Source of the DNA: a virus
DNA: 64,000 bases
Virus record (IMG/VR): IMGVR_UViG_3300026538_000054
Location: 32,001 to 96,000 of that record
Direction: 5' to 3' (one strand)
Shown here one piece after another: positions 1,198-56,592 of the stretch; position 1 is the first letter of the stretch, and each line of letters begins with the position of its first letter. Under the pieces are notes generated by a model, which was not told the origin of the DNA, searched no databases, and was given only the letters and a program-made list of their open reading frames with translations. Both the position numbers and the translations under genes were made by a program.

Positions 1198-1234
1198 GTC
1201 GTAGCTTTTAGCCCGCTACGGAGGGCTTCGGCAC
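1198..1234 (-). repeat. Solitary CRISPR-like repeat in 5' UTR of 802..1167
   Basis: Reverse complement GTGCCGAAGCCCTCCGTAGCGGGCTAAAAGCTACGAC. Confidence 0.85.
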
Positions 1235-1280
1235 TCTCGGTATCGTAGCATGCCCGGTAGCCCTTTTTCCGGAGACCTTT

Positions 1281-2144
1281 ATGGCTGTGTTCATGGAGCT
1301 CGGCAAGCATGTTGCCGATATGGATCAGGACTGTTACGTCCGGTTGACGGCGCTTCAGAAGATCTCTGGCGACGATCGTGAGCCGCGGACGTACGCGAGG
1401 ACCGTGTCCGGCAAGGCCGCCATGAAGCGGTTGGAAGCGGAGCTGGGCCTGCGCCAGGAGGAGCTCTTCCGGATCGGCAAGGGCGGCGCCAAGTACGCCC
1501 ACCTGCGCGTTGTCGAGCTGCTCGTCAACTGGTGGGGAAAGAGCGACAAGGTCAAGCCGGGGTTCGTCTCTTACTGCAGGCAGCGAATCGCGGACCTACT
1601 GGCCGCCCGAAGCGGCGACCCTGAAGCGAAGTCCCGCGCGAGCGCCCAGACGGCGGCCTTTCAAGAGAGCCAGAAGAAGCTGCACACCTGGCACGGGATC
1701 GGCTTTCACACGGCTAGCGGTTACTTCTACGCCGACGAGATGTGCCGACCCTACGGCAGGCGGCTCGACGACTTTCTGGCTACCCAGGAGGGGCGAGCCG
1801 TTCTGGAGCAGACCTCCAAGAGGTCGAACAGGCCCGTGGCCGACCTGGTGCGGCTCGCCCCTGACGGCGTGAATCGTTTGGTCCACGGGGTGGTGGGCGT
1901 GGCGCTTGCCCACTGGCTGGACGTCGAGTTCTTCGTCTACTGCCAGGACTGGCTGATCCGGCACGGCCTCAACGTCCTGTCGCCCCGAAACGGCGCTCCG
2001 GTCTACGACGAGCTTCACGGTCGAATTGACGCCCTGGAAGAGCAGGCCTGGCAGGCGGCGCAGGAGTTTGCCAGGCTTCGTCGAGATCTGGACATTGCCG
2101 CCGCGTGTATTGAGTACTGCGACGCCAGGCTTCGGCGGTCCTGA
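1281..2144 (+). CDS. KilA-N (APSES-like) DNA-binding protein, two KilA-N-like units plus coiled coil
   Basis: DCYVRLTALQK...GGAKYAH...LVNWW and GYFYADEMC...LDDFL...VHGVVGVALAHWLDVEF patterns. Confidence 0.75.
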   Translation: MAVFMELGKHVADMDQDCYVRLTALQKISGDDREPRTYARTVSGKAAMKRLEAELGLRQEELFRIGKGGAKYAHLRVVELLVNWWGKSDKVKPGFVSYCRQRIADLLAARSGDPEAKSRASAQTAAFQESQKKLHTWHGIGFHTASGYFYADEMCRPYGRRLDDFLATQEGRAVLEQTSKRSNRPVADLVRLAPDGVNRLVHGVVGVALAHWLDVEFFVYCQDWLIRHGLNVLSPRNGAPVYDELHGRIDALEEQAWQAAQEFARLRRDLDIAAACIEYCDARLRRS

Positions 2145-2173
2145 ACGGCCCTGAGTATCTGACCTATTACCCG

Positions 2174-2224
2174 GCGGTCGGTGGTGACTGGTTGTTCCAG
2201 TCACCACCGACCGCTTTGTTTTTT
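2174..2224 (+). terminator. Intrinsic terminator
   Basis: 18-bp perfect stem GCGGTCGGTGGTGACTGG/CCAGTCACCACCGACCGC followed by a T-rich tail. Confidence 0.8.
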
Positions 2225-2235
2225 GAGGTAGTGTT

Positions 2236-3543
2236 ATGTTTCGTGTACGAAGCAGGCGGCTGGGCGTTGAGTGCTTGAGCGAGCGCGTCGTTCCCGCCGC
2301 CATGACCTGGGGCGGTGGCAGCATGCTTGACGCTTCCGTTCTGAGAACAGACAACTGGGCTGGTGGTGTGGTGCCGGGCGCGAATGACAGTGTCACGATC
2401 GGCGTGAGCGATCATCCGCCCTGGGTCCCGGCCGGCTGGCCTGTCACCTGGGGGGCGTTAAGCCTGGCGTCTAACGCCGTCATTCACGATACCGGGTTGT
2501 TAATCATTACCGGGGCTGGCGTCGCGGGCGACTATCCTAGCGTCATTTCCGGCAGCGTCGATTTCCATTACCAGGGACCGCCGAAAGGCCCTGCCCCTGG
2601 CAGGATTGAAGAGAACGGAGTGTTGGCGTTCGAGTCCAGGGGCGCGCTCTGGAACTCGGGCGGGATCGGTGACGGGACCGGACTGGGAACTGTCATTATC
2701 GATACTGGCGGGACGTTAGAGGCTCGCTCGAACGCCGTGGGCTTCAACTGGTGTGATGTCGTTGTCGGCTACAACGGCAAGCTAAACTTAACCAGCTTGA
2801 ACGCCAACCTGCTAACGACGGTTACGGATATAACGATTGAGAATAATGGGCAGCTTAACTTCACCAGCACTGACACGGGACAGGGCGCGCGAGGCGGCTT
2901 GGCGGGTGATGGGCGGGTATTCCTGACGGACGACGGCGTGATCATGAACCAGGCCAGGGTTGCTCCCGGTCAGGGGGTTGGCTGGTTGACGCTCAACGTA
3001 AAGTTGACCATTTCGGGTGGCAACTATACGGTTGACACCGAAAGCTATAGTAAGCACTCCGGTGCCGATCTGATCTTCACCCAAGACGTCTATCAGGACG
3101 GCGGTGCCATGCACCTGCACGGCCGTTGTGACGCCATCTGGTACGACGACGGCGGGATCTTCAAGTTTGAGTTGGGAGATCACCCAACTATCTGCGGCAC
3201 GCTCACGATTGACGACGGCGGCGTGTTGAGCTTCGACCAGTGCGGCAATGAGTCGAAGGTCATCGGCGACCTGATCTTCACCGAGGGCACGTACAACTTG
3301 CCCCTCGGTGACGCGGCGATGGTCCCAAAGCTCCACGTTACCGGCAGCGCGACGTTTGGGTCGAACGAGTTCGGCCCGACCGCCTGCCTGAACTGGTTCG
3401 TCCCGCCGAACCAGACCGCGCCCGCCAACGCCGTCGAGTTCTTCCTGTGCGACGGGACGGTCACGGGCACTCTGGGCGAGCTGCAAGTGCAGCGGTTCCT
3501 GACTGTCGCGGTTGTTAACGGTCAGACGCGCTTCTCGATTTGA
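2236..3543 (+). CDS. Planctomycete-type extracellular beta-helix protein
   Basis: N-terminal RRLGVECLSERVVPA resembles planctomycete LEPR-XLL motif; W-x-G-G...NW-x-GG-x-VPG-x-x-D motif; Gly/Asn/Thr-rich passenger-like repeats. Confidence 0.7.
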   Translation: MFRVRSRRLGVECLSERVVPAAMTWGGGSMLDASVLRTDNWAGGVVPGANDSVTIGVSDHPPWVPAGWPVTWGALSLASNAVIHDTGLLIITGAGVAGDYPSVISGSVDFHYQGPPKGPAPGRIEENGVLAFESRGALWNSGGIGDGTGLGTVIIDTGGTLEARSNAVGFNWCDVVVGYNGKLNLTSLNANLLTTVTDITIENNGQLNFTSTDTGQGARGGLAGDGRVFLTDDGVIMNQARVAPGQGVGWLTLNVKLTISGGNYTVDTESYSKHSGADLIFTQDVYQDGGAMHLHGRCDAIWYDDGGIFKFELGDHPTICGTLTIDDGGVLSFDQCGNESKVIGDLIFTEGTYNLPLGDAAMVPKLHVTGSATFGSNEFGPTACLNWFVPPNQTAPANAVEFFLCDGTVTGTLGELQVQRFLTVAVVNGQTRFSI

Positions 3544-3635
3544 CATATTCGGACCGCCACGAAAGCAACCATGTTTCTCAGCAATTCTCAGCAACAAGGC
3601 CGCTGAGAAGGCCTTCATCTCTGATGGTAGCAACC

Positions 3636-3857: not shown

Positions 3858-3862
3858 CGGTC

Positions 3863-4856: not shown

Positions 4857-4870
4857 CTCGTGTAATGCTG

Positions 4871-4898
4871 GCCCTCTGCAGCGGGCTGAATGCTGCAA
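4871..4898 (+). repeat. Solitary CRISPR-like repeat (core)
   Basis: GCCCTCTGCAGCGGGCTGAATGCTGCAA. Confidence 0.8.
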
Positions 4899-4933
4899 AA
4901 ATGCTGCAAAAAGAAATGGGCCGAGCGCCAAGC

Positions 4934-4986: not shown

Positions 4987-5030
4987 CGAGCCGCGTGCGC
5001 CTTTCCCATGCGGGTGTTATGCTGTAGGCC

Positions 5031-5181
5031 GTACCAGAGCCATACGCAGCGGGCTAAAAGCTGCGAAGGATGGCGACCTGTGTCAAAGCCCTGCGCAGCG
5101 GGCTGAATGCTGCGAGAGGATGTCCCACTCCCTGGCCACGGTGGGTGACAAAGCCCTTTGCAGCGGGCTTAAAGCTGCGAC
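5031..5181 (+). CRISPR. Mini-array, 3 degenerate repeats (5031, 5080, 5145), spacers 12 and 28 bp
   Basis: Three 37-bp copies of the repeat. Confidence 0.75.
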
Positions 5182-5223: not shown

Positions 5224-5724
5224 ATGTCCGAACACGAGTTGCTGCGCTCCATCAATCAACGCCTCGCACACATAGGCCGCTCGACGGACGCTATCGCCTC
5301 GGCTGTCTTCCTTATCGTGCGAAAGTTGCTCGATGAGGAGCAAGGTGGCCTGTCGCCCGAAGACGCCGCCAAAGTGCTCGCCCGACTGACGGCCCACGAC
5401 CAAGCTCTCGAGGACATCGTCGCCGAGCAAACCGACGAGAGCTCTTCCACGCTCGGCAAACACCACTCAGTAGCGAGAACCGCGATGGCTATTCCGCAAG
5501 CCTTGCAGGACATCTTGGCCAAGATTGACGCCGACACCAGCGCCCTGGCCGCGGTGGTCCTGGACCTGCGCAACAAGATCAGCACGGGCATGTCCCAGGA
5601 GGACGTGGTCGCCGTACAGACCACCCTGGGTCAGATCGCCGACCGTCTCGAGCAGACGGCTCACGACCCCAACGCGCCGGTGCCGCCCGGCCCTCAACCG
5701 GTCTTCGCCGGCCGCAAGCCGTAA
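5224..5724 (+). CDS. Coiled-coil hypothetical protein (possible internal start at 5485)
   Basis: ORF track, helical composition. Confidence 0.55.
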   Translation: MSEHELLRSINQRLAHIGRSTDAIASAVFLIVRKLLDEEQGGLSPEDAAKVLARLTAHDQALEDIVAEQTDESSSTLGKHHSVARTAMAIPQALQDILAKIDADTSALAAVVLDLRNKISTGMSQEDVVAVQTTLGQIADRLEQTAHDPNAPVPPGPQPVFAGRKP

Positions 5725-5911
5725 GGCGGCCAAGAGATCACGTTGTTCGGTAGGTGGTCGGAACGAGCCGAGTGCCCCTCACGGGGAGTCGGCTCGTTTC
5801 GTTTTCCCTTTTCCGGAAAACGTTTTGTCGCGTGCGTGTTAACCTGGCGACAGGCCTACTCGGCGGCCTAATAGCCGAGAAGTAGCCTAGAACGGAAAAA
5901 GAAACGAGCTA

Positions 5912-22657: not shown

Positions 22658-22767
22658 GTTCCAAAGCCCTGTGTAGCGGGCTAAAAGCTGCAACCGGTAG
22701 ACGGGGTGGCGCGAGAGCCACGGCTCGGCCGTGCCAAAGCCCTCTGCAGCGGGCTGAAAGCTACAAA
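22658..22767 (+). CRISPR. Mini-array: repeat, 36-bp spacer, repeat
   Basis: Repeats 22658-22694 and 22731-22767. Confidence 0.85.
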
Positions 22768-24820: not shown

Positions 24821-24930
24821 GTTGCGGCATCCAGCCCGCCGCACAGGGCTTTGACACACGGTGAGACTGGGCGTAGCGTCATCGGTTCACGATGTTGCAG
24901 CTTTCAGCCCGCTGCAGAGGGCTTTGGAAC
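24821..24930 (-). CRISPR. Mini-array: repeat, 36-bp spacer, repeat
   Basis: Repeats 24894-24930 and 24821-24857, between xis and int. Confidence 0.85.
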
Positions 24931-25074
24931 AACGGCTAGATTATCAACAGGGAAGTTCTTTTCCGGAAAACGTGTTGTAGGCCCCGAAAATTCCTCTCCT
25001 GGGCGCGTATAAGAATAGTAGGGAGGGGCGGCCGGGTAAGGCCGGGACGGACCTGCCGGCCGCTCTTCCCATCT

Positions 25075-25105
25075 AAGCCCTGTGCAGCGGGCTCAATGCT
25101 GCAAA
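25075..25105 (+). repeat. Solitary CRISPR-like repeat (core)
   Basis: AAGCCCTGTGCAGCGGGCTCAATGCTGCAAA. Confidence 0.8.
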
Positions 25106-27166: not shown

Positions 27167-27258
27167 AGATACAAGTGACGGCCGAGGACATCGCCACTTG
27201 AGCACCGGCAACGCCACAGCGATCCCTGGGGGGATCGCTGTGGTATTTTCTTCCTTTT

Positions 27259-27288
27259 AGCCCTCTACAGCGGGCTAAAAGCTGCGAC
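27259..27288 (+). repeat. Solitary CRISPR-like repeat in 5' UTR of 27317
   Basis: AGCCCTCTACAGCGGGCTAAAAGCTGCGAC. Confidence 0.8.
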
Positions 27289-29029: not shown

Positions 29030-29051
29030 GCGAGTTCTTTTACGGCCTCGG

Positions 29052-29163
29052 CAACAAGGCCGCCAGAGAGGCCTGCGTGTAGGATAGCGACCGGAAACTG
29101 TTTTCCGGAAAAGATTGGCTTCCCTCGCTAGTCTACACACAGGCCTCTCTGGCGGCCTTGTTG
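29052..29163. repeat. 31-bp inverted repeat enclosing TTTTCCGGAAAA
   Basis: CAACAAGGCCGCCAGAGAGGCCTGCGTGTAG / CTACACACAGGCCTCTCTGGCGGCCTTGTTG. Confidence 0.75.
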
Positions 29164-29207
29164 TCAGGAACGGAAAAGCAGCTTACGGTGCTGCTACGAT
29201 GACCGCT

Positions 29208-29315
29208 AGACCAAAGCCCTCCGCAATGGGCTAAAAGCTGCGACGGAGGCGGGAATACGCGACGACGCGACGTTCTACTTGCCAAAGCCCTCTGTAGCGG
29301 GCTAAAAGCTGCAAT
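29208..29315 (+). CRISPR. Mini-array: repeat, 34-bp spacer, repeat
   Basis: Repeats 29208-29244 and 29279-29315. Confidence 0.8.
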
Positions 29316-31338: not shown

Positions 31339-31344
31339 TTTCTT

Positions 31345-33633: not shown

Positions 33634-33667
33634 CTGACCTACCACGAGTTACCATGTTCGGCTGTAC

Positions 33668-33698
33668 AAGCCCTCTGCGGCGGGCTGAAAGCTGCGAA
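33668..33698 (+). repeat. Solitary CRISPR-like repeat in 5' UTR of 33721
   Basis: AAGCCCTCTGCGGCGGGCTGAAAGCTGCGAA. Confidence 0.8.
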
Positions 33699-35876: not shown

Positions 35877-38800
35877 ATGGCTAACCTACCGCCGCTTCAA
35901 GGCCCCGTCTCCGCGACGCCGTCAGGCCATGGCGCCCCTGTGACCATGCGGGCCTTTGACGATCACGCCGCGACCAGGGAGGCCATTTATTCCAAGACCC
36001 TGAAGGCCCTGGAGAAACTGCCGCCTGTCGAGAACGCGCGACACTCCTTGCGCGTCGAGAGGCCCGCCTACGCAGGCCCCGGCATGGTCTCCCTGGCCGA
36101 GCAAAACAGGGCCATTCTTGAAGGGCGGTCGCTTTTTCGCCGGCTCAAAGGCGACGTGGTCCTCACGGACAAGGCCACGGGCAAGGAGCTCGACCGAAAG
36201 AACGTGACCATCGCCCAGGTGCCCATGTACACCCAACGCGGCACGTTCATCTTTAACGGTTCTGAAAATGGATTGTCACACCAATTGAGGCTGCAGTCAG
36301 GCATCTACGCCCGAATACGCAGCACGGGCGAGGCGGAGTCGCACGTCAATGTACGGCCAGGCAAAGGCCTCTCTCACCGCTACTTCCTGGACCCGGAGAC
36401 CGGCCTCTTCAAGCTCCAGGCTGGACAGGCCTCTGTGCCCCTGGTCACCGTGCTGCGCGCGATGGGTGCGACAGACAGGGAGCTGCAAGAGGCCTGGGGC
36501 CGAGAGCTCTTCTCCGTTAACGCCAAGAAGGACGACCCGCGCTCCATCGAGAAGCTCTACGAGAAGCTGGAGCGACGCCCTGACAAGCAAGCCCCTGCCG
36601 AGGGCAAGCGCCTCAGGGTGGCCGAGCTCATGGCGAAGATGGAGCTTGACCCCGAGGTCACGAAGCGGACGCTGGGCCATCCCCATGCCACCCTGAGCAA
36701 GGAGACCATCCTGGCCGCCACCAGGAAGTTGCTCCGAGTGGCCAGGGACGAAGAAGAGCCGGACGACCGAGATCACCTGGCCTATCAGACCTTCCACGGC
36801 CCGGAGGACATGATCGCGGAGAGGGCTGAGCGGTCATCGCCCCTGTTCCACCAGCTTTTGTGGAAGGCGACGCGCACGGGCAAGCTGGACCATGTTCAGC
36901 CCAACTTCCTGTCCAAACATGTTCAAGGGGCCATCCTTGACTCAGGCATTGGTAACAACCTGGAAGAAATTAACCCATTAGAGTTCCTTAACAACGCGCA
37001 CAAGATAACTCGTATGGGCCGAGGCGGCATCGCCTCAATTGACAGTATACCTTCGTCCAGTAGAGCGGTTCACTCGAGTCACGTCGGTTTCATTGACCTG
37101 GTCTCGACCCCGGAAAGTCAACGTGCCGGCGTAGACACTCGCGCCGGGTTCAAGGCCCTGAAGGGCGACGACGGCCGGCTCTACACGCCGGTACACAACG
37201 CCAGGACTGGCAAGGAAGAGCTCAAAAGCCCGCAGGACCTGGCGGACGCCGTCCTCGCCTTCCCAGGGCAAATGCAAACCGGCAAGAAGCGCGTGACCGC
37301 CCTGGTCAAGGGCAGGGCGACCAGTGTGCCTCGCGAAGAGGTGGATTATGCCCTGCCCCACATGGAGCACGCCTTCACACCTACGTCCAACCTGGTCCCG
37401 CTCAAGGCCATGAGCAAGGGCCAGCGGGTGAGCATGGGTGGTCGGTTCCTGGTTCAGTCCGTGGCGCTCAAGGACGGTGAAGCGCCCCTGGTCCAGGGCC
37501 TTGTTCCCGGCACCAACAAGTCCTTTGAAGAGCTCTACGGACGCCACGTCGGCGCTGTCCATGCCAGAGATGATCAAGGCGGTCGCGTGGTGAAAGTTAC
37601 GCCCGACGGCATCACGGTCAAGTACGACGACGGCAAGACCGAAGAACACGAACTGTACAATCACTTCGTACTGAACAGGAAATCGCTTCTGCACAATACG
37701 CCAGTGGTGCGAGAAGGTGACAGGATTGAAGCGGGCCGTCCGCTGGCGAAGTCCAACTATACCGATGCCCAGGGCCGCGTGGCTGTCGGTAAGAACCTGC
37801 GCACGGCGTACATCGCACATGGTGGAGGTTCTTCCGCGAACTACGAGGATGCCTGGGTCATCAGCGAGTCGGCGGCCAAGAAGTTCACCAGCGACCACGC
37901 CTACCAGCACGCGATCGAGTGGGAAGACAACCACAAGCGCGGCAAGCGCACCTACCAGGCGCTCTTCCCTACGAAGTACGACCGAAAGACGTTGGAGCTC
38001 CTGGACGAAGATGGCGTGATCAAGCCAGGGACCAAGGTTGAGTCCGGTACGCCCCTGGTCCTGGCCGCCAGTCAGAAAGACCCTGATCGCAAGACCGTTC
38101 ACCAGAGTAGAGGCGGTGGCTTCTCAGACGCTTCTCTTGTCTGGGACCACCACGCTCCTGGAGAGGTGGTCAGCGTCGCCAAGACGGACAAGGGCGTCAA
38201 CGTTGTAGTTAGGTCATTTAATACGACTGAGATAGCGGACAAACTTTGTTACGACCCTGAGACGGAGGTGCTGACCAGCCGCGGCTGGGCGCGCGTAGCT
38301 GAGCTAACCACCGCCGACGAGGTCGCCACGTTGGGGCCAGAGGACCGGATCGAGTACCTCCAGCCTGTCGGTATCCACCGCTACCACCACATCGGCCGGA
38401 TGTATCGGCTGGAGACGACGCAGATCGATCTACTGGTCACCGAGAACCATCACCTGTACGCCTGCCGCAGGAATCGGTCTGAGTACTCTCTCCAGACTGC
38501 GTCCGAGCTATTCGGGAAGACGTTTCGGCTGAAACGAGACGGCGTGTGGACTGGCGCCTCGCCGGACTTCGTCAAGATGCCGGACCTCGTTGTTAAGGCT
38601 GGGCAGTTCGGCCACGGTGAGCGCGCCCTGGATGGGCCGAGCTTGCCGACCGACGTGTTTGTCATGCTACTCGGGATGTACCTGTCGGAGGGCTGTACGT
38701 TCAACCAGCCGAGCTACGGGTCGTACGGCATCGATATTACGCAGATCAATCCTGGCGGGCGCGCCAAGCTGTTTCCGGCGCTGGATGCCGCTGGTCTGAA

Positions 38801-42133: not shown

Positions 42134-42170
42134 GGCGCAGCATTCAGCCCGCTGCGCAGGGCTGCTTCAC
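42134..42170 (-). repeat. Solitary CRISPR-like repeat overlapping stop of 42167..42637
   Basis: Reverse complement GTGAAGCAGCCCTGCGCAGCGGGCTGAATGCTGCGCC. Confidence 0.8.
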
Positions 42171-44269: not shown

Positions 44270-44306
44270 TTTGCAGCAATAAGCCCGCTGCAGAGGGCTT
44301 TGGTAC
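44270..44306 (-). repeat. Solitary CRISPR-like repeat
   Basis: Reverse complement GTACCAAAGCCCTCTGCAGCGGGCTTATTGCTGCAAA. Confidence 0.8.
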
Positions 44307-44354
44307 GTCGGTCATCTTAGCAGGTACGGTGAAACGGTCGCTCGAGAGGCCTTC

Positions 44355-44563
44355 ACCTGCGACCACTGCAACTGGGACGAGGTCCAGGCCTGGCAGGGCG
44401 GGCTGATCAGACAACTGGCCAGGCTGGCCTACGAAGGCCGTCAACCGGTTGACGGCGCTCTTGACCCGGCTGCGAGGAGCAAGCCATCCTTGAGTACCTT
44501 CGCAGCGCAGGCCCCCACGTCAGGGGCTGCTGGGCCCTTGACCTCGTTCTCGGTAAGGACTGA
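44355..44563 (+). pseudogene. C-terminal remnant of Gemmata-type family gene
   Basis: LIRQLARLAYEG...GALDP / GCEEQAILEYLRSAGPHVRGCWALDLVLGKD in shifted frames. Confidence 0.7.
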
Positions 44564-44568
44564 CGAAG

Positions 44569-45471
44569 ATGACTTTGAGACAATGGCTTGATGGCCAGGC
44601 CCTGTGGTCGATGTTCACGACGGCCGAGATCAGTGAGCGAAAACAGCGACTTCTGGTCTGTGTGCTGGCCCAAAAAGCGCTGCGAAAATATAAGGCTAAT
44701 GCGAGCAGAAAGGCCATCGAGACGTCTCTGCGTTACGCCGACGGCCTGGCTGACTCGGCAGAACTGTACCGAGCCTTTGTCGAGGCCAGGTCCCTTTGCA
44801 ACTCGACTTCGCTGCCGCTGTCTAGCTGCAAACTGCTCGCTATGCGCATAGCGGGCTGCTGCGCCAGCTTGTCCCTGACCCACTTTTTCAGTGACAACTG
44901 GTTGCCGGCTCAGGGCGACGTGGGCTGGGAGGCCCTGCGATGTGCCATGCGCGAGGTTGTCGAGGCGCCTTTCGCCCTGAGGCGACTGTGCATCTTCAAG
45001 CCGTCCAGGAGGCGCGCCGACAGGTTCCTGGCCTCGCTGGTGGAGAGGAATGAAACGACCCAGACGGCAGAGAAGCGCAAGAAAGGCGTGGCATCTTCCA
45101 CCCTGGTGGAAGAGAGGTGGAAGAAGGTCGACTGGCTCTCCAGGGCCGCGCTTGACATCGCCAGGTTGATCTACGAAGAAGACCGCTTCGAGGACCTGCC
45201 CATCCTTGCCGACGCCCTGGAAGACGCCGGCTGTACAGAGGAGCACCTGCTCATGCACCTGAGAGGCAAGTCGCAATGCCCCGCCTGTCTGGAGAGCCGC
45301 CAGGCCCTGGCGGCCATCGAGCAAGTGGCTGCGCAGGCACGGTCGAAAGGCGTCAGGACCAGTGGCGCCGGTCAGGTCTCTTGCAGCGAGTGCAACCAGG
45401 GCTGGCGGCCTCTTCAAGGCCCGCACTTCAAGGGCTGCTGGGCCCTTGATCTCATCCTCGGAAAGGAGTGA
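44569..45471 (+). CDS. Gemmata-type expanded family protein
   Basis: ERKQRLLVC, LPILADALEDAGC, HFKGCWALDLILGKE. Confidence 0.8.
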   Translation: MTLRQWLDGQALWSMFTTAEISERKQRLLVCVLAQKALRKYKANASRKAIETSLRYADGLADSAELYRAFVEARSLCNSTSLPLSSCKLLAMRIAGCCASLSLTHFFSDNWLPAQGDVGWEALRCAMREVVEAPFALRRLCIFKPSRRRADRFLASLVERNETTQTAEKRKKGVASSTLVEERWKKVDWLSRAALDIARLIYEEDRFEDLPILADALEDAGCTEEHLLMHLRGKSQCPACLESRQALAAIEQVAAQARSKGVRTSGAGQVSCSECNQGWRPLQGPHFKGCWALDLILGKE

Positions 45472-47261: not shown

Positions 47262-47324
47262 TGGCCGCAAAATGGATGACTAACGCCCGGCCTAGACAAG
47301 AAGAGAGGCCACGACCATGAGCGA

Positions 47325-47361
47325 TTCGCAGCTTTTAGCCCGCTGCGTAGGGCTTGATCAC
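47325..47361 (-). repeat. Solitary CRISPR-like repeat antisense to operon
   Basis: Reverse complement GTGATCAAGCCCTACGCAGCGGGCTAAAAGCTGCGAA. Confidence 0.8.
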
Positions 47362-49511: not shown

Positions 49512-49594
49512 CTCCTGCTAACATCACGGGTTGTCAAGCCCGCCGCGGCGGGCCTGTTGCCGCGACCACCCGATGTGCCACGCGTGAGAACTTC

Positions 49595-52417
49595 ATGCCC
49601 CTTAACAGCACCGCCGGCCAGGCCCTCGTGAACGCCGTCCTCCCTGAGGAACTGCGCAACCACGAGCGCGCCCTGGACAAGAAGGGCATGGCCTCGCTCA
49701 TGAAGGAGGTGGCCAGGAAGCACCCTGAGCAGTACCGAGAGGTCCTCTTTCGCCTGGGGAAGCTAGGCCATCTCACCGCCTACCACACAGGGTCTCTCTC
49801 CTTTGGCCTGGAACACATGCGCACCGCGGTCAGCGCCAGAGACATGAAGAGAAAGCTGCGCCAGGAGATCGATCAGATCTATGACCACCGTTCTCTATCT
49901 CAAAAAGAGAAAGAACAGAAGATCGTTGAGCTGGTGAGCTCCTATCAAGCTCCTCTCGAGAAGGCCGTCTACGACGAGTCCCTTGCCGAGGGAAACCCTC
50001 TTGCTCTGCAAGTTCTCTCAGGGGCCAGGGGCAACAAGACCAACCTGCGCTCCCTGAGAGGCGCTGATCTTCTCTACGTAGACCACAAGGACCAGCCCGT
50101 CCCCATCCCTATCTTGCGATCCTACTCCGAGGGCCTGACCCCGGCTGACTACTATGCCGGCAGTTTCGGAGCGCGAAAGGGCGTCATTGACGTCAAGCAG
50201 GGCGTGGCTGATTCGGGCTTCGCCTCCAAGTTGCTCGTCCAGATGTCTCATCGCCTGGTGACCACCTCTCTGGATCATCCCGAGCCACCCTCTCGTATCA
50301 GGGGCCTGCCTGTTGACCTTGACGACCCTGACAACGAAGGTGCTCTCCTCGCCCATGACATAGGGCCGTTCAAGAGAAACACCGTCCTCACCCCTGACGT
50401 GCTTCACCGGCTCAAGCAAGAAGGCCACAAACACCTCCTTGTGAGATCGCCTACCGTCGGCGGCCCGCCTGACGGAGGAGTGTACGCCCGTGACGTTGGT
50501 ATCAGAGAGAAGGGCGTGATATCTCCCGTAGGAGATTTCGTCGGCATCGCCGCCGCACAGGCTCTCTGCCTAGCTGAAGGCACGTTGGTCACCCTGGCTG
50601 ATCTCACTTTCAAGCGCATCGAAGAGGTCGCTCCGGGAGACCTTATTCTGGCGGCCAACAGCAAGGGTGAGACCGCTTCGGCCAAGGTGAACAGACGTTT
50701 CCTTAACGGCCCCCGTGCGTGTTTACGTTACTTCTGGTCGAATCAGGAGCATTCTGTTCTTGCCACGAGCGAACACAAAGTGCTCAGGCCTGACAAGACC
50801 GTCAGGCCCTTCGACCAGACCTCCGTGGTCTTGCTTCATACGCCTCAAGGGCCTACTCCAGCCGCCCTGGATGAGCCTCTTCATCAAGAGCCAATCATCC
50901 TGCCCACCTATGACCTGGAGATCGACCACCCCGAGCATCTCTACGTGCTCAAGGGCGGCTTGATCGTGGCCAACTCTGAGCCTCTTACCCAGAGCACGCT
51001 GGGCAGCAAGCACTCGGGGGGCGTAGCTGGGGCCAAGAAATCAGGGCCTACGGGCTTCAAATTGCTCTCTTGCTTGGGAGAAGGCACGTTGGTGCGCATG
51101 GCCGACGTGCCTTCCAAGGAGATTGAGAAGATCAAGCCGGGTGACAGGGTCATCGGTGCGAACTTGGAGGGGGGATGGTTCCCCGTCCAGGTCAAGAACG
51201 TCTTTGACAACGGCCAGCGCCCTTGTCGCACGTTCACCTTTGAGTCGATGCTTGGTGAGGAGAGCCTCACTGCCACGGACGACCATCTCGTACTGGCTCA
51301 GGCGCCCTGCTACAAGATCGACAAGACCCTGGCTGACAAGGGCCTGAAACGGTTTGATGAGTGGGAAGGCGGCCTCAAGGTCTCGCTGGGAGAGATACGC
51401 ACGGCGCATAACTTGCCTCACCCGTTGGCGCCTGTGGGCTACAGGCCTGTGAAGGCCGCCAAGGAGCCTGGTTCTCCAGGCGTTCGTGTCGAGCTCCTCT
51501 ACGCCACCCCTGAGGTGCTTCTCCCTACCTACGACCTGGAGGTGGATCACCCTGACCACCTCTTCGTCCTGGCCAACGGCCTGGTGGTGAGCAACTCGCA
51601 GATTCAGGTTCCCAAGGCCTTCCCATCTGGAGCTTCTCACTCTCAAGAAGATGGCCGCGTGCAAGCCGTCTTCCCTGCGCCCCAGGGCGGTAACTACGTG
51701 CAGGTCAACGGCCACAAGCACTACGTGGCCCCTGGCTTCGACGTCCTGGTCAAGCCAGGCGATGAGGTTGAATCTGGCGATGTTCTCAGCGAGGGAGTAC
51801 CGAACCCTGCGGAAGTGGTGGCTCACAAGGGCGTTGGAGAAGGCAGGGCCTACTTCGTCCAGGCGTTCAGAGACTCGTTCAAGCGCTCAGGCCTGCAGGC
51901 GCATCGCCGGAACATCGAGCTGGTCGCCAGGGGCCTGATTGACCATGTCAGGCTTACCGAGGAGCATGGGCACTACTCCCCGGATGACGTAGTGCAGTAC
52001 TCCCGTCTGGAGAGGGACTGGCAGCCAAGAGACGGTGCCAAGGAAAAGGCCCCCAACGAGGCCATGGGGCACTACCTGGAAGCGCCGGTGCTGCACTACT
52101 CCATCGGGACGAAGATCAGGCCCAGCGTGGTGAAGCGCCTGTCTCAGTTCGGCGTCAAGAGCGTGTTGGTGCATCAGCAACCACCGCCTTTTGAGCCTGA
52201 AATGGTCAGGGGGATGGAGAACCTGACCCATGACCCCGACTGGATGACGAGATTTCTGGGGCCTTATGTGAAAAAGAACTTCCTGAAGGGCGTTGCCAGG
52301 GGTGACATCTCCGACGAGGCCGGAAGCAGCTACGTCCCTTCTCTGGCCAGGGGAGCGGACTTCAACCGTCTGCCGCCTGTCAAGGGCTTTGACCCCAGGT
52401 CTCTGGGCCAGCTCTAA
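49595..52417 (+). CDS. Phage RNA polymerase beta' C-terminal subunit (two mini-inteins)
   Basis: SGARGN, SYSEGLT...GARKG (bridge helix), VGIAAAQAL|SEPLTQ...KHSGG (trigger loop), HRRNIELVAR. Confidence 0.93.
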   Translation: MPLNSTAGQALVNAVLPEELRNHERALDKKGMASLMKEVARKHPEQYREVLFRLGKLGHLTAYHTGSLSFGLEHMRTAVSARDMKRKLRQEIDQIYDHRSLSQKEKEQKIVELVSSYQAPLEKAVYDESLAEGNPLALQVLSGARGNKTNLRSLRGADLLYVDHKDQPVPIPILRSYSEGLTPADYYAGSFGARKGVIDVKQGVADSGFASKLLVQMSHRLVTTSLDHPEPPSRIRGLPVDLDDPDNEGALLAHDIGPFKRNTVLTPDVLHRLKQEGHKHLLVRSPTVGGPPDGGVYARDVGIREKGVISPVGDFVGIAAAQALCLAEGTLVTLADLTFKRIEEVAPGDLILAANSKGETASAKVNRRFLNGPRACLRYFWSNQEHSVLATSEHKVLRPDKTVRPFDQTSVVLLHTPQGPTPAALDEPLHQEPIILPTYDLEIDHPEHLYVLKGGLIVANSEPLTQSTLGSKHSGGVAGAKKSGPTGFKLLSCLGEGTLVRMADVPSKEIEKIKPGDRVIGANLEGGWFPVQVKNVFDNGQRPCRTFTFESMLGEESLTATDDHLVLAQAPCYKIDKTLADKGLKRFDEWEGGLKVSLGEIRTAHNLPHPLAPVGYRPVKAAKEPGSPGVRVELLYATPEVLLPTYDLEVDHPDHLFVLANGLVVSNSQIQVPKAFPSGASHSQEDGRVQAVFPAPQGGNYVQVNGHKHYVAPGFDVLVKPGDEVESGDVLSEGVPNPAEVVAHKGVGEGRAYFVQAFRDSFKRSGLQAHRRNIELVARGLIDHVRLTEEHGHYSPDDVVQYSRLERDWQPRDGAKEKAPNEAMGHYLEAPVLHYSIGTKIRPSVVKRLSQFGVKSVLVHQQPPPFEPEMVRGMENLTHDPDWMTRFLGPYVKKNFLKGVARGDISDEAGSSYVPSLARGADFNRLPPVKGFDPRSLGQL
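50567..50974 (+). mobile_element. Mini-intein 1 (136 aa)
   Basis: CLAEGTLV...TSEHK...TYDLEID...LIVAN|S. Confidence 0.9.
51071..51595 (+). mobile_element. Mini-intein 2 (175 aa)
   Basis: CLGEGTLV...TDDHL...TYDLEVD...LVVSN|S. Confidence 0.9.
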
Positions 52418-52446
52418 GCCCTGCGCAGCGGGCTAAATGCTGCGAC
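52416..52446 (+). repeat. Solitary CRISPR-like repeat overlapping beta' stop codon
   Basis: T-AAGCCCTGCGCAGCGGGCTAAATGCTGCGAC. Confidence 0.85.
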
Positions 52447-52860: not shown

Positions 52861-52868
52861 TTCGTCTG

Positions 52869-52898
52869 AGCCCTGCGCGGCGGGCTAAATGCCGCGAC
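52869..52898 (+). repeat. Solitary CRISPR-like repeat
   Basis: AGCCCTGCGCGGCGGGCTAAATGCCGCGAC. Confidence 0.85.
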
Positions 52899-53013
52899 TA
52901 GCCGAGCTGCCGCCCTGTACCAGGCCTCCGCAGCGGCCTTATTGCTGCGGCAGGATGTTGTGCAGGCAGTCGATGTGTCACGTCTCGCTCATCTTTCGCA
53001 CAAGGACACGACC

Positions 53014-53427
53014 ATGGACGATTTCCAGCAGTAACTCCGTCTGCAGGAGCAGCACTACCGACTGCTCCTGAACGGTGAGGAGCCCAGCACCGGGCCGGTT
53101 GAGGACCTCGAGGACCGGATGGATGCGTTGTGGGACAAGTTCACCGAGGAACAACGGAAGGCGGTCATGGCCCTGGATGGTAACGAGGGCCTTCCCGAGG
53201 TCATCCAGCAAGCGATCAACGCCTACAAGGCCTTGTACGACGCTGGCGGTGGTAGGGGCAACGACACGCCGAGGCCCAAGGTGCAGCAGGACTTCAGCCC
53301 TGCTCAGCTCGGCGATCTTGCCGAGCTGAGTTTGGCCTTTGACGACGCCCGCTGGGGCCTGGAGATGGCCCTTCTCGACAGGAGGCTCGCCAGCCTCAGT
53401 CTCAGCGACAGGAGCGAGGCCCAATGA
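53014..53427 (+). pseudogene. Hypothetical gene with early in-frame TAA (53032)
   Basis: ATG 53014 with AAGGA RBS is in frame with 53119..53427. Confidence 0.45.
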
Positions 53428-53792
53428 AAGAGATAGAAGACCTGATCTTCGACTGGATCGACACCGACCTGGCCTACCAGGCAGCCAGGTCGCGTGGTTA
53501 CACGAGAAGCCGGGACGACAAGAACTACGTGGCAATGCATCAGGCCCGCGCAGTTTGGGGGCGCGCCTGGCGTGCTCTTGCAATTCTTACGAAACCGCTC
53601 TACCCGAAGAGCCCTTTGGAGGAGTTGTTTGCGGACTACCAGGCCTTCAGGGAGCGCCACGGCTGCCAGATTGACCCGAAGGACATACCCGCCCCTTTCA
53701 GCCAGGAGCTGGCCGAGCTCAGGGAGCGCTGCAGCGTGGCGCTCCTAGCGCTTCGCGGGGCGTACCACAAGCAGTTCGACGAGAAGCGCTGA
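53424..53792 (+). CDS. Hypothetical protein, tandem paralogue A
   Basis: MKEIEDLIFD. Confidence 0.7.
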   Translation: MKEIEDLIFDWIDTDLAYQAARSRGYTRSRDDKNYVAMHQARAVWGRAWRALAILTKPLYPKSPLEELFADYQAFRERHGCQIDPKDIPAPFSQELAELRERCSVALLALRGAYHKQFDEKR

Positions 53793-53837
53793 AGACGCCC
53801 GTGGCGTACTCGAGGCTGCGTGCAGGAGCGAGGCCCA

Positions 53838-54263
53838 ATGAAAGAGATAGAAGACCTGATCTTCGACTGTATCGACAACGAACTGGCCTCCCAGGTAGCC
53901 GTGGCGCGTGGCTGTATGAGAGCCCCGGACGACAAGAACTACACAGTACGCGAGGCCTACGCGCGCGCACGCCAGGCTTACGAGCGCTCACGGCGAGTGC
54001 TTGTAAATCTCATGAAGACGGCTGCGCCGAAGCTCGCGATACAAGAGTTGTTCGATGACTACGCGGCCTTCAAGGAGCGCCACGGCCCACTGGGTGACCC
54101 GAAGGACATACCAACCCTTTTCAGCCAGGAGCTTGCTAATCTCAGGTGCCACCACGCCGTGGCGCATCTGGCGCTTCAAGAGGCGTACGCCAGACAGTTC
54201 GACGAGACAGCTAGCGCCAGGTGCGCGACCAGTAGTGGACCAGGTAGCTCTCCGGATGGATGA
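53838..54263 (+). CDS. Hypothetical protein, tandem paralogue B
   Basis: MKEIEDLIFD; shares 46-bp identical 5' DNA with A. Confidence 0.7.
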   Translation: MKEIEDLIFDCIDNELASQVAVARGCMRAPDDKNYTVREAYARARQAYERSRRVLVNLMKTAAPKLAIQELFDDYAAFKERHGPLGDPKDIPTLFSQELANLRCHHAVAHLALQEAYARQFDETASARCATSSGPGSSPDG

Positions 54264-54765: not shown

Positions 54766-54938
54766 GATTTTGACTCTAACCTGGGGGAAGAGCATGCGAG
54801 TTGTAAGGTGCAGTAGCTGCGGCAAGGACTTGTGCCTGAAGTGTGACGGTGATGGGTGGTTGTACACCGACGCTGCCGAAGGGGCAGAGTTTTGCCCGGA
54901 CTGCGCCGGCCCGCACCAGTGCCCCAACGAGGAAACGC

Positions 54939-55241
54939 ATGAAGCTCAAGGACAAGACGGCGGCTGACATCGTCGCTACCTGGTACAGGCTCAGGGCCCA
55001 GGGATGGCGTCGCCATCCCGTCGCTTTGGATAACCTCAGAAGCGCGATGTTGGCTCTCGAAGGGCCTGACCTGCCTGAGGAGCTTATCGCGTGGCAGGCG
55101 GCCGTTGAGGCGGAGCGGCAGATGACCGCTGAGCTGGACGCGGACAACATGGTCCCCATGTTGTCCGCGTTTCGCTTCGTCAGGGCCAACCAGGCCCTTA
55201 TCGAGGCCTGTGCAGAAGGAGTAACTGTTGATGGCGACTGA
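54939..55241 (+). CDS. Hypothetical protein
   Basis: GAGG RBS. Confidence 0.5.
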   Translation: MKLKDKTAADIVATWYRLRAQGWRRHPVALDNLRSAMLALEGPDLPEELIAWQAAVEAERQMTAELDADNMVPMLSAFRFVRANQALIEACAEGVTVDGD

Positions 55242-55551
55242 AAAGCAGAAGAAACTGGCGGCCTCTTTTCCCTACGCCGTTCCACAATGCTTCGTCCGGT
55301 TCCTCGACAACAACCACGAAGGCATCGCGGTCTACACCAAACGTGGCGGCGCGGTCAGCTTCACGCGCCATCTCGGCACGCCCATGAACGCTAAGCTCTG
55401 GGAGGACCTGGTGGAGCGGCTGGGCTGCCTGGGGCTGCGTATCTACGGCCCGGGCTTCGACGGTGCGTGGACCATGGGCTTTTTCGGGCCGGGCGCGTTC
55501 ATATACCTGGACGAGAACTTCCTCGTCCGGGACATCGAGTTTCAACCGTGA
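55231..55551 (+). CDS. Hypothetical protein
   Basis: AGGAG RBS. Confidence 0.55.
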   Translation: MATEKQKKLAASFPYAVPQCFVRFLDNNHEGIAVYTKRGGAVSFTRHLGTPMNAKLWEDLVERLGCLGLRIYGPGFDGAWTMGFFGPGAFIYLDENFLVRDIEFQP

Positions 55552-55571
55552 GGTGAGCCATACAAGACGAG

Positions 55572-56060
55572 GTGCTTCAGAAGGCCCTTGAGACCATCAG
55601 GGCCGTCGGCGTCAATCTGCCCGACCCTGCTCCCGGTCTCTGTACCGCCGTCGTGCGACCCTACTACCTGACGGCCGACCAGAACTGGCTCTGCATCGCG
55701 ACCCAGATACACGGGCAGGTCGTCTTCGTGCTCAATTTGTTTTCCGGAAAAGCACACGAGAATGAGCAATGCGTGGCCGATTGGCGGCCTGGTGATGCCC
55801 TGGATGACCAACTGCTTGAGCGATTGCGGCTCTTCGTCCGCGTTGACCATGAGGCCCTTCTCGCCCAGGCCAGGGCCCTGCTTCAGGGCTGGGTGGACAA
55901 ACAAGCCCATGACCGCTGCTGGTACTACCCTGATGTCTTCCGTGAGTTGGCTGCCTTGCTAGGCGTGAAGACGACCGTCCCTGGAGGCTTGCCGCCCAGG
56001 CCTGAGTTCGAGGACGGCTGCAGGAGATACCAGGACGAGGAGTACAACCGCACGGTTTGA
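55572..56060 (+). CDS. Hypothetical protein
   Basis: HDRCW...F...C motif. Confidence 0.55.
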   Translation: MLQKALETIRAVGVNLPDPAPGLCTAVVRPYYLTADQNWLCIATQIHGQVVFVLNLFSGKAHENEQCVADWRPGDALDDQLLERLRLFVRVDHEALLAQARALLQGWVDKQAHDRCWYYPDVFRELAALLGVKTTVPGGLPPRPEFEDGCRRYQDEEYNRTV

Positions 56061-56351
56061 CAGCTCACCTGTTTACCATTACGCTGGAGAGCTCCAGCGT
56101 AATGGTAAGGTTCTCAGCAAGGCCTTCTCGGCGGCCTCGATGCCGTGAAATGCCGTCGGCGCTGCGCTAAATGCCGCAACTCGACCTTGCACACTCGCTC
56201 GCGGGCCAGTAGCATGATGGTGCTCGGAGTGCGTGTTGAGCAGGACAGAGGAAGAAGCCTAGTAGTGTAAGCCGTTCCCCGCGCGGACAGAGCGCCGCCA
56301 ATAGTGGGCCGCGTCGAACAGCTACCCGACGACCTGACCGACGAGCAGAAC

Positions 56352-56592
56352 GAGCAAAAGCCCTGTGCAGCGGGCTGGATGCTGCAACTCTAGCAGTTGG
56401 GGCCAGGACAGGCCTTGCTACACGTACTGAAGCCCTATACAGCGGGCTGATAGCTGTAGCACGGCGAGCGCGTCGACGCCGAGTGGTCAACGCACTGAAG
56501 CCCTCTGCGGCGGGCTGAATGCTGCAACTGGAAGTAGTTGTTCGACAAGGTGGTCGCACCGAAGCCCTCTATAGTGGGCTGAAAGCTGCAGC
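56352..56592 (+). CRISPR. Degenerate array, 4 repeats (56352, 56424, 56492, 56556), spacers 35, 31 and 27 bp
   Basis: Four 37-bp copies; half repeat at 56166-56180. Confidence 0.85.

Follow-up and report, generated by a model that had tools for sequence, protein, structure and literature searches.

The DNA analysed here, a window of 64,000 nt (positions 32,001 to 96,000 of IMG/VR record IMGVR_UViG_3300026538_000054), lies within a phage-like element of ~199 kb, contig C51. The window contains 33 copies of a 37-nt element (Table 1) and the contig ~66, made up of an array of 18 repeats and 48 solitary or mini-array copies. The array is located downstream of a cas12m gene and on the same strand, the two being positioned 3.7-7 kb outside the window. 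The 628-aa protein encoded beside the array matches PDB entry 23vw (Cas12m; E=2.8e-52), possesses the D-E-D RuvC motifs and belongs to a family for which the representative library has 2,902 members. An initial annotation of the window had named a Cas12 enzyme as the candidate partner of the repeat, in agreement with this placement. No other cas12m gene, and no cas1, is present in the genome. The array leader consists of TGCTACGCT, 7 nt and then repeat position 1, a layout kept in an 88%-identical relative (L009). The cas12m leader (~97 nt) contains, 35 nt ahead of the start codon in the mRNA, a repeat-like element that is conserved, and is 98% identical to that of L009, compared with 88% for the coding DNA. 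Two array spacers match the element's own genes, spacer 1 at 38/38 positions, next to a TTG flank, and spacer 15 at 34/36. A search with nhmmer returned 80 hits on C51 and no significant repeat match in the other 5.2 Mb of the 5.4-Mb genome; the solitary and mini-array copies are restricted to the C51 element.

Table 1. Repeat copies and associated features in the window (S1, stem 1; S2, pseudoknot helix; WC, Watson-Crick; GU and AC, G-U and A-C pairs)
Feature	Position	Strand	Remarks
Solitary repeat	742..778	+	5' tail overlaps upstream gene end; S1 5/5, S2 5 WC + 1 GU
Solitary repeat	1198..1234	-	Antisense to flanking genes; S2 CGTAGC/GCTACG
Extended -10 TGCTACGAT of copy 1198	1242-1250	-	7 nt upstream
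Solitary repeat, AGGCC/GGCCT class	3585..3621	-	S2 CTCAGC/GCTGAG; TACCAT box 3624-3629(-)
Solitary repeat	4863..4899	+	Begins 7 nt past upstream gene end
Mini-array repeat 1/3	5031..5067	+	Spacers 12, 28 nt; leader of gene 5224-5724; -10 TATGCT 5018-5023
Mini-array repeat 2/3	5080..5116	+	S2 CGCAGC/GCTGCG
Mini-array repeat 3/3	5145..5181	+	Start codon of gene 5224-5724 42 nt downstream
Protospacer of array spacer 1	5632..5669	-	38/38; 5' flank GTTG (TTN-type PAM); inside gene 5224-5724
Solitary repeat, AGGCC class	5845..5881	+	S2 CTCGGC/GCCGAG
Mini-array repeat 1/2	22658..22694	+	36-nt spacer; -10 TAAGAT 22645-22650
Mini-array repeat 2/2	22731..22767	+	Gene start 39 nt downstream
Mini-array repeat 2/2	24821..24857	-	S2 TGCGGC/GCCGCA
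Mini-array repeat 1/2	24894..24930	-	S2 TGCAGC/GCTGCA; -10 TAATCT 24938-24943(-)
Palindrome TTTTCCGGAAAA			Farther upstream of copy 24894..24930(-) and its -10
Solitary repeat	25069..25105	+	Adjoins 3' end of tyrosine integrase gene
Solitary repeat	27252..27288	+	29 nt upstream of gene 27317-29029
Repeat, AGGCC class	29045..29081	-	Inverted partner of 29134
Repeat, AGGCC class	29134..29170	+	First of 3-repeat cluster
3-repeat cluster, middle copy	29208..29244	+	TGCTACGAT box 29192-29200, 7 nt upstream
3-repeat cluster, last copy	29279..29315	+	
Intercistronic solitary repeat	33662..33698	+	29 nt past stop, 23 nt before next gene; TACCAT 33650-33655
Solitary repeat	42134..42170	-	
Solitary repeat	44270..44306	-	TGCTAAGAT box 44314-44322(-), 7 nt upstream
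Solitary repeat	47325..47361	-	Antisense to neighbouring genes; guide shares 11-nt 5' seed with array spacer 2
Divergent GC-rich copy	49530..49566	+	S2 CGCGGC/GCCGCG; between stop 49511 and RNA polymerase gene start 49595
Repeat	52410..52446	+	Overlaps stop codon of RNA polymerase gene 49595-52417; S2 CGCAGC/GCTGCG
Repeat	52862..52898	+	2 nt past stop; S2 CGCGGC/GCCGCG
Repeat, AGGCC class	52915..52951	+	16 nt from preceding repeat
Repeat, AGGCC class	56113..56149	+	Followed by partial repeat remnant
Mini-array repeat 1/4	56352..56388	+	Followed by spacers of 35, 31, 27 nt
Mini-array repeat 2/4	56424..56460	+	S2 TACAGC/GCTGTA
Mini-array repeat 3/4	56492..56528	+	
Mini-array repeat 4/4	56556..56592	+	Weakest S2: 3 WC, 2 GU, 1 AC
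Repeat	56855..56891	+	S2 TGCAGC/GCTGCA; 21-nt spacer to next repeat
Repeat	56913..56949	+	Gene start 23 nt downstream

As the CRISPR repeat of a type V-M (Cas12m) system, the 37-nt element constitutes its guide-RNA handle. Read on the strand GTG...AC, it comprises a 7-nt 5' tail and a 5-bp stem 1 (AGCCC/GGGCT or AGGCC/GGCCT). Its other parts are a linker of 2 nt in which one U hardly varies, a pseudoknot helix of 6 bp that joins the stem loop to the 3' segment, an A-rich loop of 4 nt and the terminal AC. Across 52 distinct copies, the two helices are paired in 97.6% of 572 cells, compared with 90.1 ± 0.7 in shuffles; double-sided changes number 49, where shuffles give 8.7 ± 5.6, and the covariation score is 0.308 against 0.166 (0/500 shuffles in each case). 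Sliding the partner columns by 1-3 lowers pairing to 23-46%. A structure-blind test, APC-corrected mutual information over 666 column pairs with 300 permutations, ranked pairs 18-32, 10-23, 15-35 and 16-34 highest; every one is a proposed pair, both helices are represented, and two exceed the maximum of the permutations and two the 95th percentile. The stem-1 pattern is matched 31 times, compared with 5.8 ± 2.5 in shuffles, and the same topology is kept with different letters in the distant Cas12m loci L010 and L015. Pairs 10-23, 15-35 and 18-32 show violations of the four-gamete test with one another, which imply either repeated independent compensatory events or recombination inside the repeat. 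Among non-Watson-Crick pairs, G-U outnumbers A-C by 27 to 9 (p=0.004), which fixes the RNA strand.

The initial annotation had proposed a conserved RNA pseudoknot with a defined strand, and both parts hold: both helices covary beyond shuffles, and the strand given by the G-U bias is also that of the array relative to cas12m, of the sense-direction promoters upstream of solitary copies and of published crRNAs. The pairings between loop and 3' segment that it listed are present in 13/13 of the copies it cited, and the residual mismatches at 22658, 33662 and 56492 are G-U on the strand it gave. The copies themselves are real, although its coordinates mixed repeat starts with stem-1 starts, with offsets of 6-7 nt (56861, 52416, 52869 and 33668). 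Stem 1, described there as nearly invariant, does form the AGCCC/GGGCT pairing, but a compensatory flip of its middle pair yields AGGCC/GGCCT in 9/52 distinct copies.

The fold of Cas12m crRNA, a stem plus pseudoknot, has already been solved structurally (PMC10442227, PMC11013384). In the MmCas12m2 crRNA, disorder affects the first 7 nt at the 5' end, the pseudoknot joins -22..-17 to -8..-3, the loop is 4 nt long, and the protein reads A(-2)C(-1), the C(-1) base-specifically (PMC10442227); that of GoCas12m contains a triplex and a pseudoknot (PMC11013384). Here, the pseudoknot joins -23..-18 to -8..-3, the loop occupies -12..-9 and the repeat likewise ends in AC, although about 14 solitary copies have A in place of C(-1). 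The inferred fold follows the published scaffold almost position for position, and the pseudoknot, being already known, is no discovery in itself; what is unusual is the solitary copies. In common with the MmCas12m2 and GoCas12m systems, a 36-37-nt repeat with a dispensable 5' 7 nt, the stem, 6-bp pseudoknot, 4-nt loop and terminal AC stands beside a ~600-aa Cas12m without cas1/cas2, with the guide 3' of the repeat and T-rich protospacer flanks. The present system differs in having a stem one base pair longer, in being carried not by a plasmid but by a phage-like element that has a multisubunit RNA polymerase of its own, and in the presence, besides the array, of about 48 divergent copies across the whole element.

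A covariance model scores the 33 window copies at 29-55 bits, the next match, which is the copy at 742 shadowed on the reverse strand, at 18.6 bits, and all others at 13 bits or less, a bimodal distribution in which half-decayed copies are almost absent. In the solitary copies, scaffold columns 8-36 are conserved and the 5' 7-nt tail, a part that is disordered or trimmed away in Cas12m crRNA, is not (0.2-0.75 bit in columns 1-7 versus 1-2 bits in most scaffold columns), with U13 conserved at 98%. Provisional gene calls cover 83% of the contig, yet 47/48 solitary or mini-array copies lie outside them. With promoters defined as consensus matches only, a TANNNT box ends 5-10 nt upstream of 12/36 cluster-first copies, and exactly 7 nt upstream of 9, against a background of 2-4%; the layout of these copies (extended -10, 7 nt, repeat) is identical to that of the array's own leader. 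About a third of copies start exactly where an extended -10 promoter would be predicted to initiate transcription. About ten copies begin no more than 30 nt after a co-directional stop codon. Nine copies are antisense to both neighbours and have their own -10 boxes; these cannot be leaders of the neighbouring genes and would make separate RNAs. Several independent lines, namely pairing above the column-composition expectation, a kept scaffold with a drifting tail, placement outside gene calls, the fixed 7-nt spacing and the bimodal scores support the earlier view that the solitary copies are functional and not debris.

A fold kept through matched mutations, coupled with frequent siting at predicted transcript starts, makes the copies look like working RNA parts. 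Judged from sequence, they probably serve phage transcripts as leaders that bind Cas12m or as processing sites, and a V-M repeat whose solitary copies give those transcripts a Cas12m handle is the best explanation overall, one that we consider likely. Each copy would cause the downstream RNA to start with a Cas12m handle, either straight from the promoter or through Cas12m cleavage upstream of the scaffold, as in pre-crRNA. Bound Cas12m could then mark or process many phage transcripts, and may hold the next ~17-20 nt, in several cases reaching the ribosome-binding site, thereby tuning stability or translation; its own mRNA might be included among the targets via the repeat-like leader element. 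Apart from crRNA processing, the publications consulted describe no role for Cas12m at the RNA level.

Repeat-like sequences outside arrays, and mini-arrays of degenerate repeats, are known as stand-alone units (Shmakov et al. 2023, doi 10.1101/2023.03.03.530964), reported in the abstract for type I and subtype V-A, with a single mention of Cas12m/V-M in the main text. In about half of V-A loci a repeat-like sequence lies directly upstream of the effector gene (doi 10.1101/2023.03.03.530964), as it does here. However, a locus there has one or a few such units, all of them placed within it, and their spacers frequently show partial matches to cas promoters, whereas dozens of copies extend here across 190 kb and no partial target or promoter match was seen near cas12m. 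TldR proteins, nuclease-dead relatives of TnpB, may offer another parallel: a protein of the TnpB/Cas12 lineage is used with guide RNAs to regulate genes and not for defence (doi 10.1101/2023.11.30.569447). The protein family there is a different one, the guide RNA is long, and there is neither an array nor dispersed repeat copies; the resemblance would be one of use only.

An alternative scenario is that, at each solitary copy, promoter, repeat and guide form a single-guide crRNA gene directing DNA-binding Cas12m to trans targets, which could be host genes, competing phages or, via partial matches, the phage's own promoters; if true, the copies would constitute a dispersed RNA-guided transcription-factor network. 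A Cas12 crRNA needs only a single 5' repeat, the promoter layout equals that of the array leader, the antisense copies have promoters and no downstream gene, and the self-targeting array spacers fit the regulatory, non-cutting use described for Cas12m (PMC10442227, PMC11013384). Nevertheless, no trans targets of the first 18-20 nt after solitary repeats were found on C51, where matches are not above chance, or in the rest of the genome, which gave 2 hits at ≤1 mismatch versus 3-8 in reversed or offset controls, although the data may simply lack the genomes of the true host or of competitors. Many of the putative guides coincide with the 5' UTR and ribosome-binding site of the gene that follows, and mini-array spacers of 7, 12 and 16 nt are shorter than the 17-bp heteroduplex used by Cas12m, making some too short for guiding. 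Further, the 3' end of the repeat lacks T at PAM position -2, so a copy's own locus is not a target, and near cas12m no partial target was seen. On balance we regard this scenario as unlikely.

Less credible still, and in our view improbable, is that the copies are decoy or sponge RNAs, acting as RNA anti-CRISPRs against a host or rival Cas12m or titrating the phage's own. Many promoter-driven scaffold copies would indeed compete for Cas12m, and single repeat units of viruses that function as RNA anti-CRISPRs are known, as are viral mini-arrays (review PMC11656645); what they share with the present element is that a virus carries solitary repeats and 1-2-spacer arrays, presumably transcribed. 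Those units, however, mimic a host CRISPR system and their viruses lack the effector; here the cognate Cas12m is encoded by the phage itself, the host genome holds neither effector nor repeat, and siting at stop codons and directly upstream of start codons would be unneeded.

That the copies are neutral debris, left by recombination-broken arrays or imported from related arrays with the source pairing still carried, is very improbable. CRISPR repeats are recombinogenic, partial remnants are seen at two places, one following 56149 and the other at C51:21501, and the CGTAGC variant, found here only in solitary copy 1198, is an array repeat variant of L009, suggesting that some solitary variants may have been inherited from other arrays instead of evolving in place; no relatives on long contigs were found for comparing individual solitary sites. 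However, debris accounts poorly for pairing above what column make-up predicts, for decay confined to the tail, for the near-exclusive placement outside gene calls, for the fixed -10 distance or for the gap between 33 intact copies at ≥29 bits and other matches at ≤18.6 bits, with no decay continuum. Finally, a role as DNA, in attC- or REP-like recombination sites or protein-binding hairpins unrelated to Cas12m, merits almost no credence, for although a mirror fold is possible on both strands, a tyrosine integrase gene (window 25119-26249) adjoins three copies and the element carries duplicated gene families, the 27:9 bias points to RNA of one strand, the sequence is identical to the CRISPR repeat beside cas12m, orientations are mixed, and attC-type length or core motifs and a REP-associated transposase are lacking.

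The window corresponds to bases 70146-134145, reversed, of a ~199-kb contig (C51), and the repeat belongs to a CRISPR system carried on this molecule. An array of the identical repeat adjoins a gene whose 628-aa product matches the solved Cas12m structure PDB 23vw end to end (E=2.8e-52), retains the D, E and D motifs of RuvC and has 2,902 relatives in a representative library. This arrangement identifies the 37-nt element, at the level of sequence, as a type V-M (Cas12m) CRISPR repeat, and the Cas12 that the initial annotation had put forward as a candidate partner is thus found beside the array.

Features of the Cas12m system, the repeat copies and the carrier contig (positions are those of the window unless prefixed C51 or L001, the latter being the cas12m locus of C51)
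Feature	Position	Strand	Remarks
CRISPR array	C51:137842-139130	-	18 repeats, 17 unique spacers of 34-39 nt; outside window
cas12m, 628 aa	C51:139311-141197	-	adjoins array, upstream on same strand; outside window
cas12m leader, ~97 nt	L001:7053-7170 = C51:141198-141315	-	contains TGCTACCGT box; outside window
Array spacer 1	C51:139056-139093		next to leader
Protospacer of spacer 1	5632-5669	-	38/38 match, 5' flank GTTG; within gene 5224-5724
Mini-array of 3 repeats	5031-5181		precedes gene 5224-5724
Match to array spacer 15	C51:198150-198185		34/36 match, 5' flank AATC
Guide after solitary repeat 47325	47306-47324	-	
Mini-array spacer, 7 nt	C51:13394/13350		
Mini-array spacer, 12 nt	5031/5080		
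Mini-array spacer, 16 nt	52862/52915		
TTTTCCGGAAAA sites, 12 nt	261, 5820, 24970, 29112, 41428, 55751		palindrome
Multisubunit RNA polymerase	35946-41381 and 49595-52417	+	split by inteins
Tyrosine recombinase	25119-26249	-	Phage_integrase, E=1e-14
Family-A DNA polymerase	C51:158264-162643		fused uracil-DNA glycosylase domain and intein
Paralogous genes	31186-31992, 44467-45471, 60624-61788		repeat families D3, D5, D15, D16
Tandem duplication, 423 bp	53409-54207		
Intergenic block pair	41441-41516/42061-42136		
Intergenic block pair	41871-41965/43057-43151		

Copies of the repeat are numerous on this contig and sharply delimited. Within the window, the pattern of the first helix occurs at 31 sites against 5.8 expected, and a structural regular expression applied to the whole 5.39-Mb genome returned 67 sites, 62 of them on C51. 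A profile search gave 80 matches on C51 and none significant in the remaining genome; once reverse-strand shadows are dropped, 18 repeats remain in the array and 48 as solitary or mini-array copies, 33 of them lying in the window. The same 33 window copies were recovered by a covariance model run without filters, at 29-55 bits, the next-best scores being 18.6 bits (the reverse-strand shadow of copy 742) and then 13 bits or less. This gap leaves no continuum of half-decayed copies, and only two partial repeat remnants were seen. At the gathering threshold no Rfam family matched the window, exact-pattern scans of viral, metagenome and genome collections gave no match to the repeat core, and among 150 genomes from the host's family a covariance model gave a single weak match. 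No close relative of the Cas12m or of the RNA polymerase was found among viral contigs, nor any long relative of the phage in the viral, metagenome or genome collections or the 150 host-family genomes.

The 52 distinct copies align without gaps (alignment A1), with stem 1 formed by columns 8-12 and 21-25 and stem 2, the pseudoknot, by columns 15-20 and 30-35; copy 1198, on the minus strand, reads as tail, AGCCC, 2 nt, CGTAGC, GGGCT, 4 nt, GCTACG and AC. Standard pairs occupy 97.6% of 572 cells, compared with 90.1 ± 0.7% when the 3' partners are shuffled, and 49 cells are changed on both sides, compared with 8.7 ± 5.6. Each of the three leading measures lies above all 500 shuffles, and sliding the partners by 1-3 columns reduces pairing to 23-46%. 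The changes are evident at individual pairs among the 52 copies: 10-23 (CG 42, GC 9), 15-35 (CG 21, UA 19, UG 11), 16-34 (GC 39, UA 4, AU 2, CG 1) and 18-32 (AU 37, GC 12, GU 3). These same four head the ranking when all 666 column pairs are ordered by corrected mutual information, a structure-blind measure, and two of them exceed the maximum of 300 permutations. All four Watson-Crick combinations are present between 15-35 and 18-32, and likewise between 10-23 and 18-32, which implies either that double changes arose repeatedly or that recombination occurred within the 37 nt. The signal is not the product of a sample skewed towards pairing: the profile used to collect the copies is column-wise, and the weakest sequence matches (49530, 29134 and 29045) pair nonetheless. 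Single-helix energy is about -8 kcal/mol for each of the two helices. The proposal that a pseudoknot is kept by compensatory mutations therefore holds for both helices. Some variants may, however, have been imported already paired rather than compensated in place, as CGTAGC, found on C51 only in solitary copy 1198, is carried by the array repeat of L009, the locus of a relative with an 88%-identical cas12m. The defined RNA strand of the initial annotation is likewise upheld: G-U cells outnumber A-C cells by 27 to 9 among 550 (p=0.004), the UG intermediate at 15-35 lies on the path from CG to UA only for this strand, the array and cas12m share one orientation, and in the published crRNA the scaffold lies 5' of the guide.

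The pseudoknot is not new, as natural variation alone leads independently to the fold that cryo-EM had revealed for the Cas12m crRNA. The 36-nt repeat-derived scaffold of MmCas12m2 begins with seven disordered nucleotides, followed by a stem, a 2-nt linker containing a flipped-out base and a non-canonical pair, and a pseudoknot (-22 to -17 with -8 to -3) that stacks on the stem and leaves a 4-nt loop, whilst A(-2) and C(-1) are read base-specifically (PMC10442227). The crRNA of GoCas12m contains a triplex and a pseudoknot, like the TnpB guide core (PMC11013384). In the C51 repeat, the tail (-37 to -31) precedes a stem (-30 to -26 with -17 to -13), a linker (-25/-24), a pseudoknot (-23 to -18 with -8 to -3), a loop (-12 to -9) and the terminal AC, so that it differs from the MmCas12m2 scaffold by one additional stem base pair and is otherwise alike. 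By sequence, the repeat RNA is predicted to form each part of such a scaffold: stem and pseudoknot, a 5' tail that can be dispensed with, a loop of 4 nt and AC at the 3' end. A near-invariant unpaired U13 and an A-rich loop fit tertiary or protein contacts. The topology is kept with different letters at distant Cas12m loci (CGCAGU/ACUGCG at L010, UCCGGC/GCUGGA at L015).

Conservation within the copies follows this scaffold. The seven tail columns carry 0.2-0.75 bit of information, whereas most of columns 8-36 carry 1-2 bits; selection therefore follows the mature scaffold and not the DNA repeat as a unit. Although gene calls, which are provisional and made by codon-usage scoring, cover 83% of C51, 47 of the 48 solitary copies lie outside them. 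A TANNNT motif ends 5-10 nt upstream of 12 of the 36 copies that come first in their cluster, against a background of 2-4%; in nine of the 36 it lies exactly 7 nt upstream, usually as an extended TGnTANNNT box, and the same -10 layout is found in the array leader and in the leader of L009. In copies with an AGGCC/GGCCT stem 1 the box is located 1-2 nt before the tail, and the RNA would begin at the stem itself. About ten copies start no more than 30 nt after a co-directional stop codon, which four of them overlap or approach to within 3 nt, and eight 'last' copies are followed, 20-64 nt downstream, by a start codon with a Shine-Dalgarno motif. Nine copies run antisense to the genes on either side; in most of these a -10-like box stands at the expected distance or close to it, so they would be separate small transcription units. 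By pairing, scaffold conservation, placement, promoter spacing and score gap, the solitary copies look functional rather than array debris, as had been supposed. Upstream of several solitary repeats, at 8-40 nt, lies the palindrome TTTTCCGGAAAA, which (at one mismatch or fewer) occurs 16 times on C51, compared with roughly one site on each of 12 other contigs, is mostly intergenic and is likely to be the operator of a transcription factor.

Repeat-like elements also occur 35 and 126 nt upstream of cas12m itself. The proximal one, which retains 4/5 stem and 6/6 pseudoknot pairs, is conserved in L009, and a similar element precedes cas12m at another Cas12m locus, L014. The leader, a ~97-nt stretch that includes the proximal element, is 98% identical to that of L009, compared with 88% for the coding DNA, and sequence further upstream is not alignable, making this region a candidate autoregulatory leader. 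Two array spacers, 1 and 15, match C51, and their flanks (TTG and ATC) agree with the T/C-rich 5' PAM expected for a type V-M guide. If the Cas12m binds DNA, these matches suggest that the element is programmed to silence genes of its own. The guide after solitary repeat 47325 and array spacer 2 are identical in their first 11 nt, each being antisense to a ribosome-binding site plus ATGAGCGA start; spacer 2 also matches the cas12m start region at 16/20 positions, with a TGT flank.

The sequences establish the identity of the system, the fold, the strand, the distribution of copies and the pattern of selection, and a mechanism can be sketched from these. Solitary copies would be transcribed and bound by Cas12m, which, where a copy follows a stop codon, would cut on the 5' side of the scaffold, as happens with pre-crRNA. 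Cas12m would then sit on the 5' end of the RNA that follows and hold its next 17-20 nt as a 'guide', which could protect that end or occlude nearby ribosome-binding sites, including that of cas12m's own mRNA. A copy's own DNA is probably not a target, since the repeat ends without the T at position -2 that both protospacer flanks (TTG and ATC) carry. In its most far-reaching form, which we advance tentatively and consider rather doubtful, the model proposes that a phage of the jumbo type has made a DNA-binding, probably non-cutting Cas12m part of the way it expresses its own genes, via ~50 promoter-proximal and intercistronic scaffold pseudoknots, so that a large share of its transcripts begin with a Cas12m handle. 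Each mRNA would then act as a crRNA-like molecule as well and, together with the self-targeting array spacers, this would amount to RNA-programmed control of mRNA processing, stability, translation or feedback repression. Should the copies be sites for Cas12m on the mRNAs of the phage, they would offer a natural example of a CRISPR effector turned by a virus to general RNA binding or processing for its own genes, and the ~30 naturally tolerated scaffold variants would be useful for engineering orthogonal Cas12m guides. It is the setting that matters here: one mobile element with its own Cas12m and ~48 structure-preserving handle copies at transcript starts and cistron boundaries. Stand-alone repeats in surveys number one or a few per cas locus (doi 10.1101/2023.03.03.530964). 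No dispersed copies were found within the 10-20 kb inspected around other Cas12m elements: at L015 (29% identity), whose array has 24 repeats, the 10 kb upstream contain no solitary copy, and L012 and L013 (40% identity) have no recognisable repeats.

The main rival to this model is that the copies are dispersed single-guide genes for DNA targets outside the present data. Guides after solitary copies, compared with C51 and the remaining genome, show no enrichment over reversed or offset controls, and the mini-array spacers of 7-16 nt are shorter than the 17-bp Cas12m heteroduplex (PMC10442227), which argues that at least those copies are putative binding sites and not guides. A CreR-type Cas-regulating RNA or regulatory mini-array would place a promoter-matching pseudo-spacer near cas12m; none is present there, and the proximal leader element has no CreR-like partial guide match within 600 nt of the gene. 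Viral solitary repeats are described in the review literature as mimics of host systems (PMC11656645). A viral RNA anti-CRISPR (Racr) of this kind is disfavoured, as C51 encodes the effector itself and the 5.4-Mb genome contains neither a second cas12m nor a cas1 nor any further copy of the repeat. DNA repeats of the REP or attC type are rejected on the G-U bias, the mixed orientations, sequence identity to the CRISPR repeat and the lack of an Rfam family. Finally, a coding role on the opposite strand is dismissed by frames that vary among copies, with no long frame across the antisense copies, and a terminator role by variable sequence and no T run 3' of the copies.

The carrier itself looks like a large phage from its gene content. 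Its multisubunit RNA polymerase is accompanied by a family-A DNA polymerase, a weak match to a gpA-type terminase and a tyrosine recombinase, the last associated with a convergent intergenic region and three flanking repeat copies. The genes of C51 are mostly without family and on one strand, and its GC content is ~62.5%, compared with 65.5% for the genome. The intein-type domains interrupting the RNA polymerase genes are LAGLIDADG and Hint. The window also contains a tandem duplication and three paralogous genes with conserved N- and C-terminal blocks. Two pairs of intergenic blocks of ~76-95 nt are 93-96% identical, and one of these pairs includes a promoter-like TTGACG ... CATAAT.
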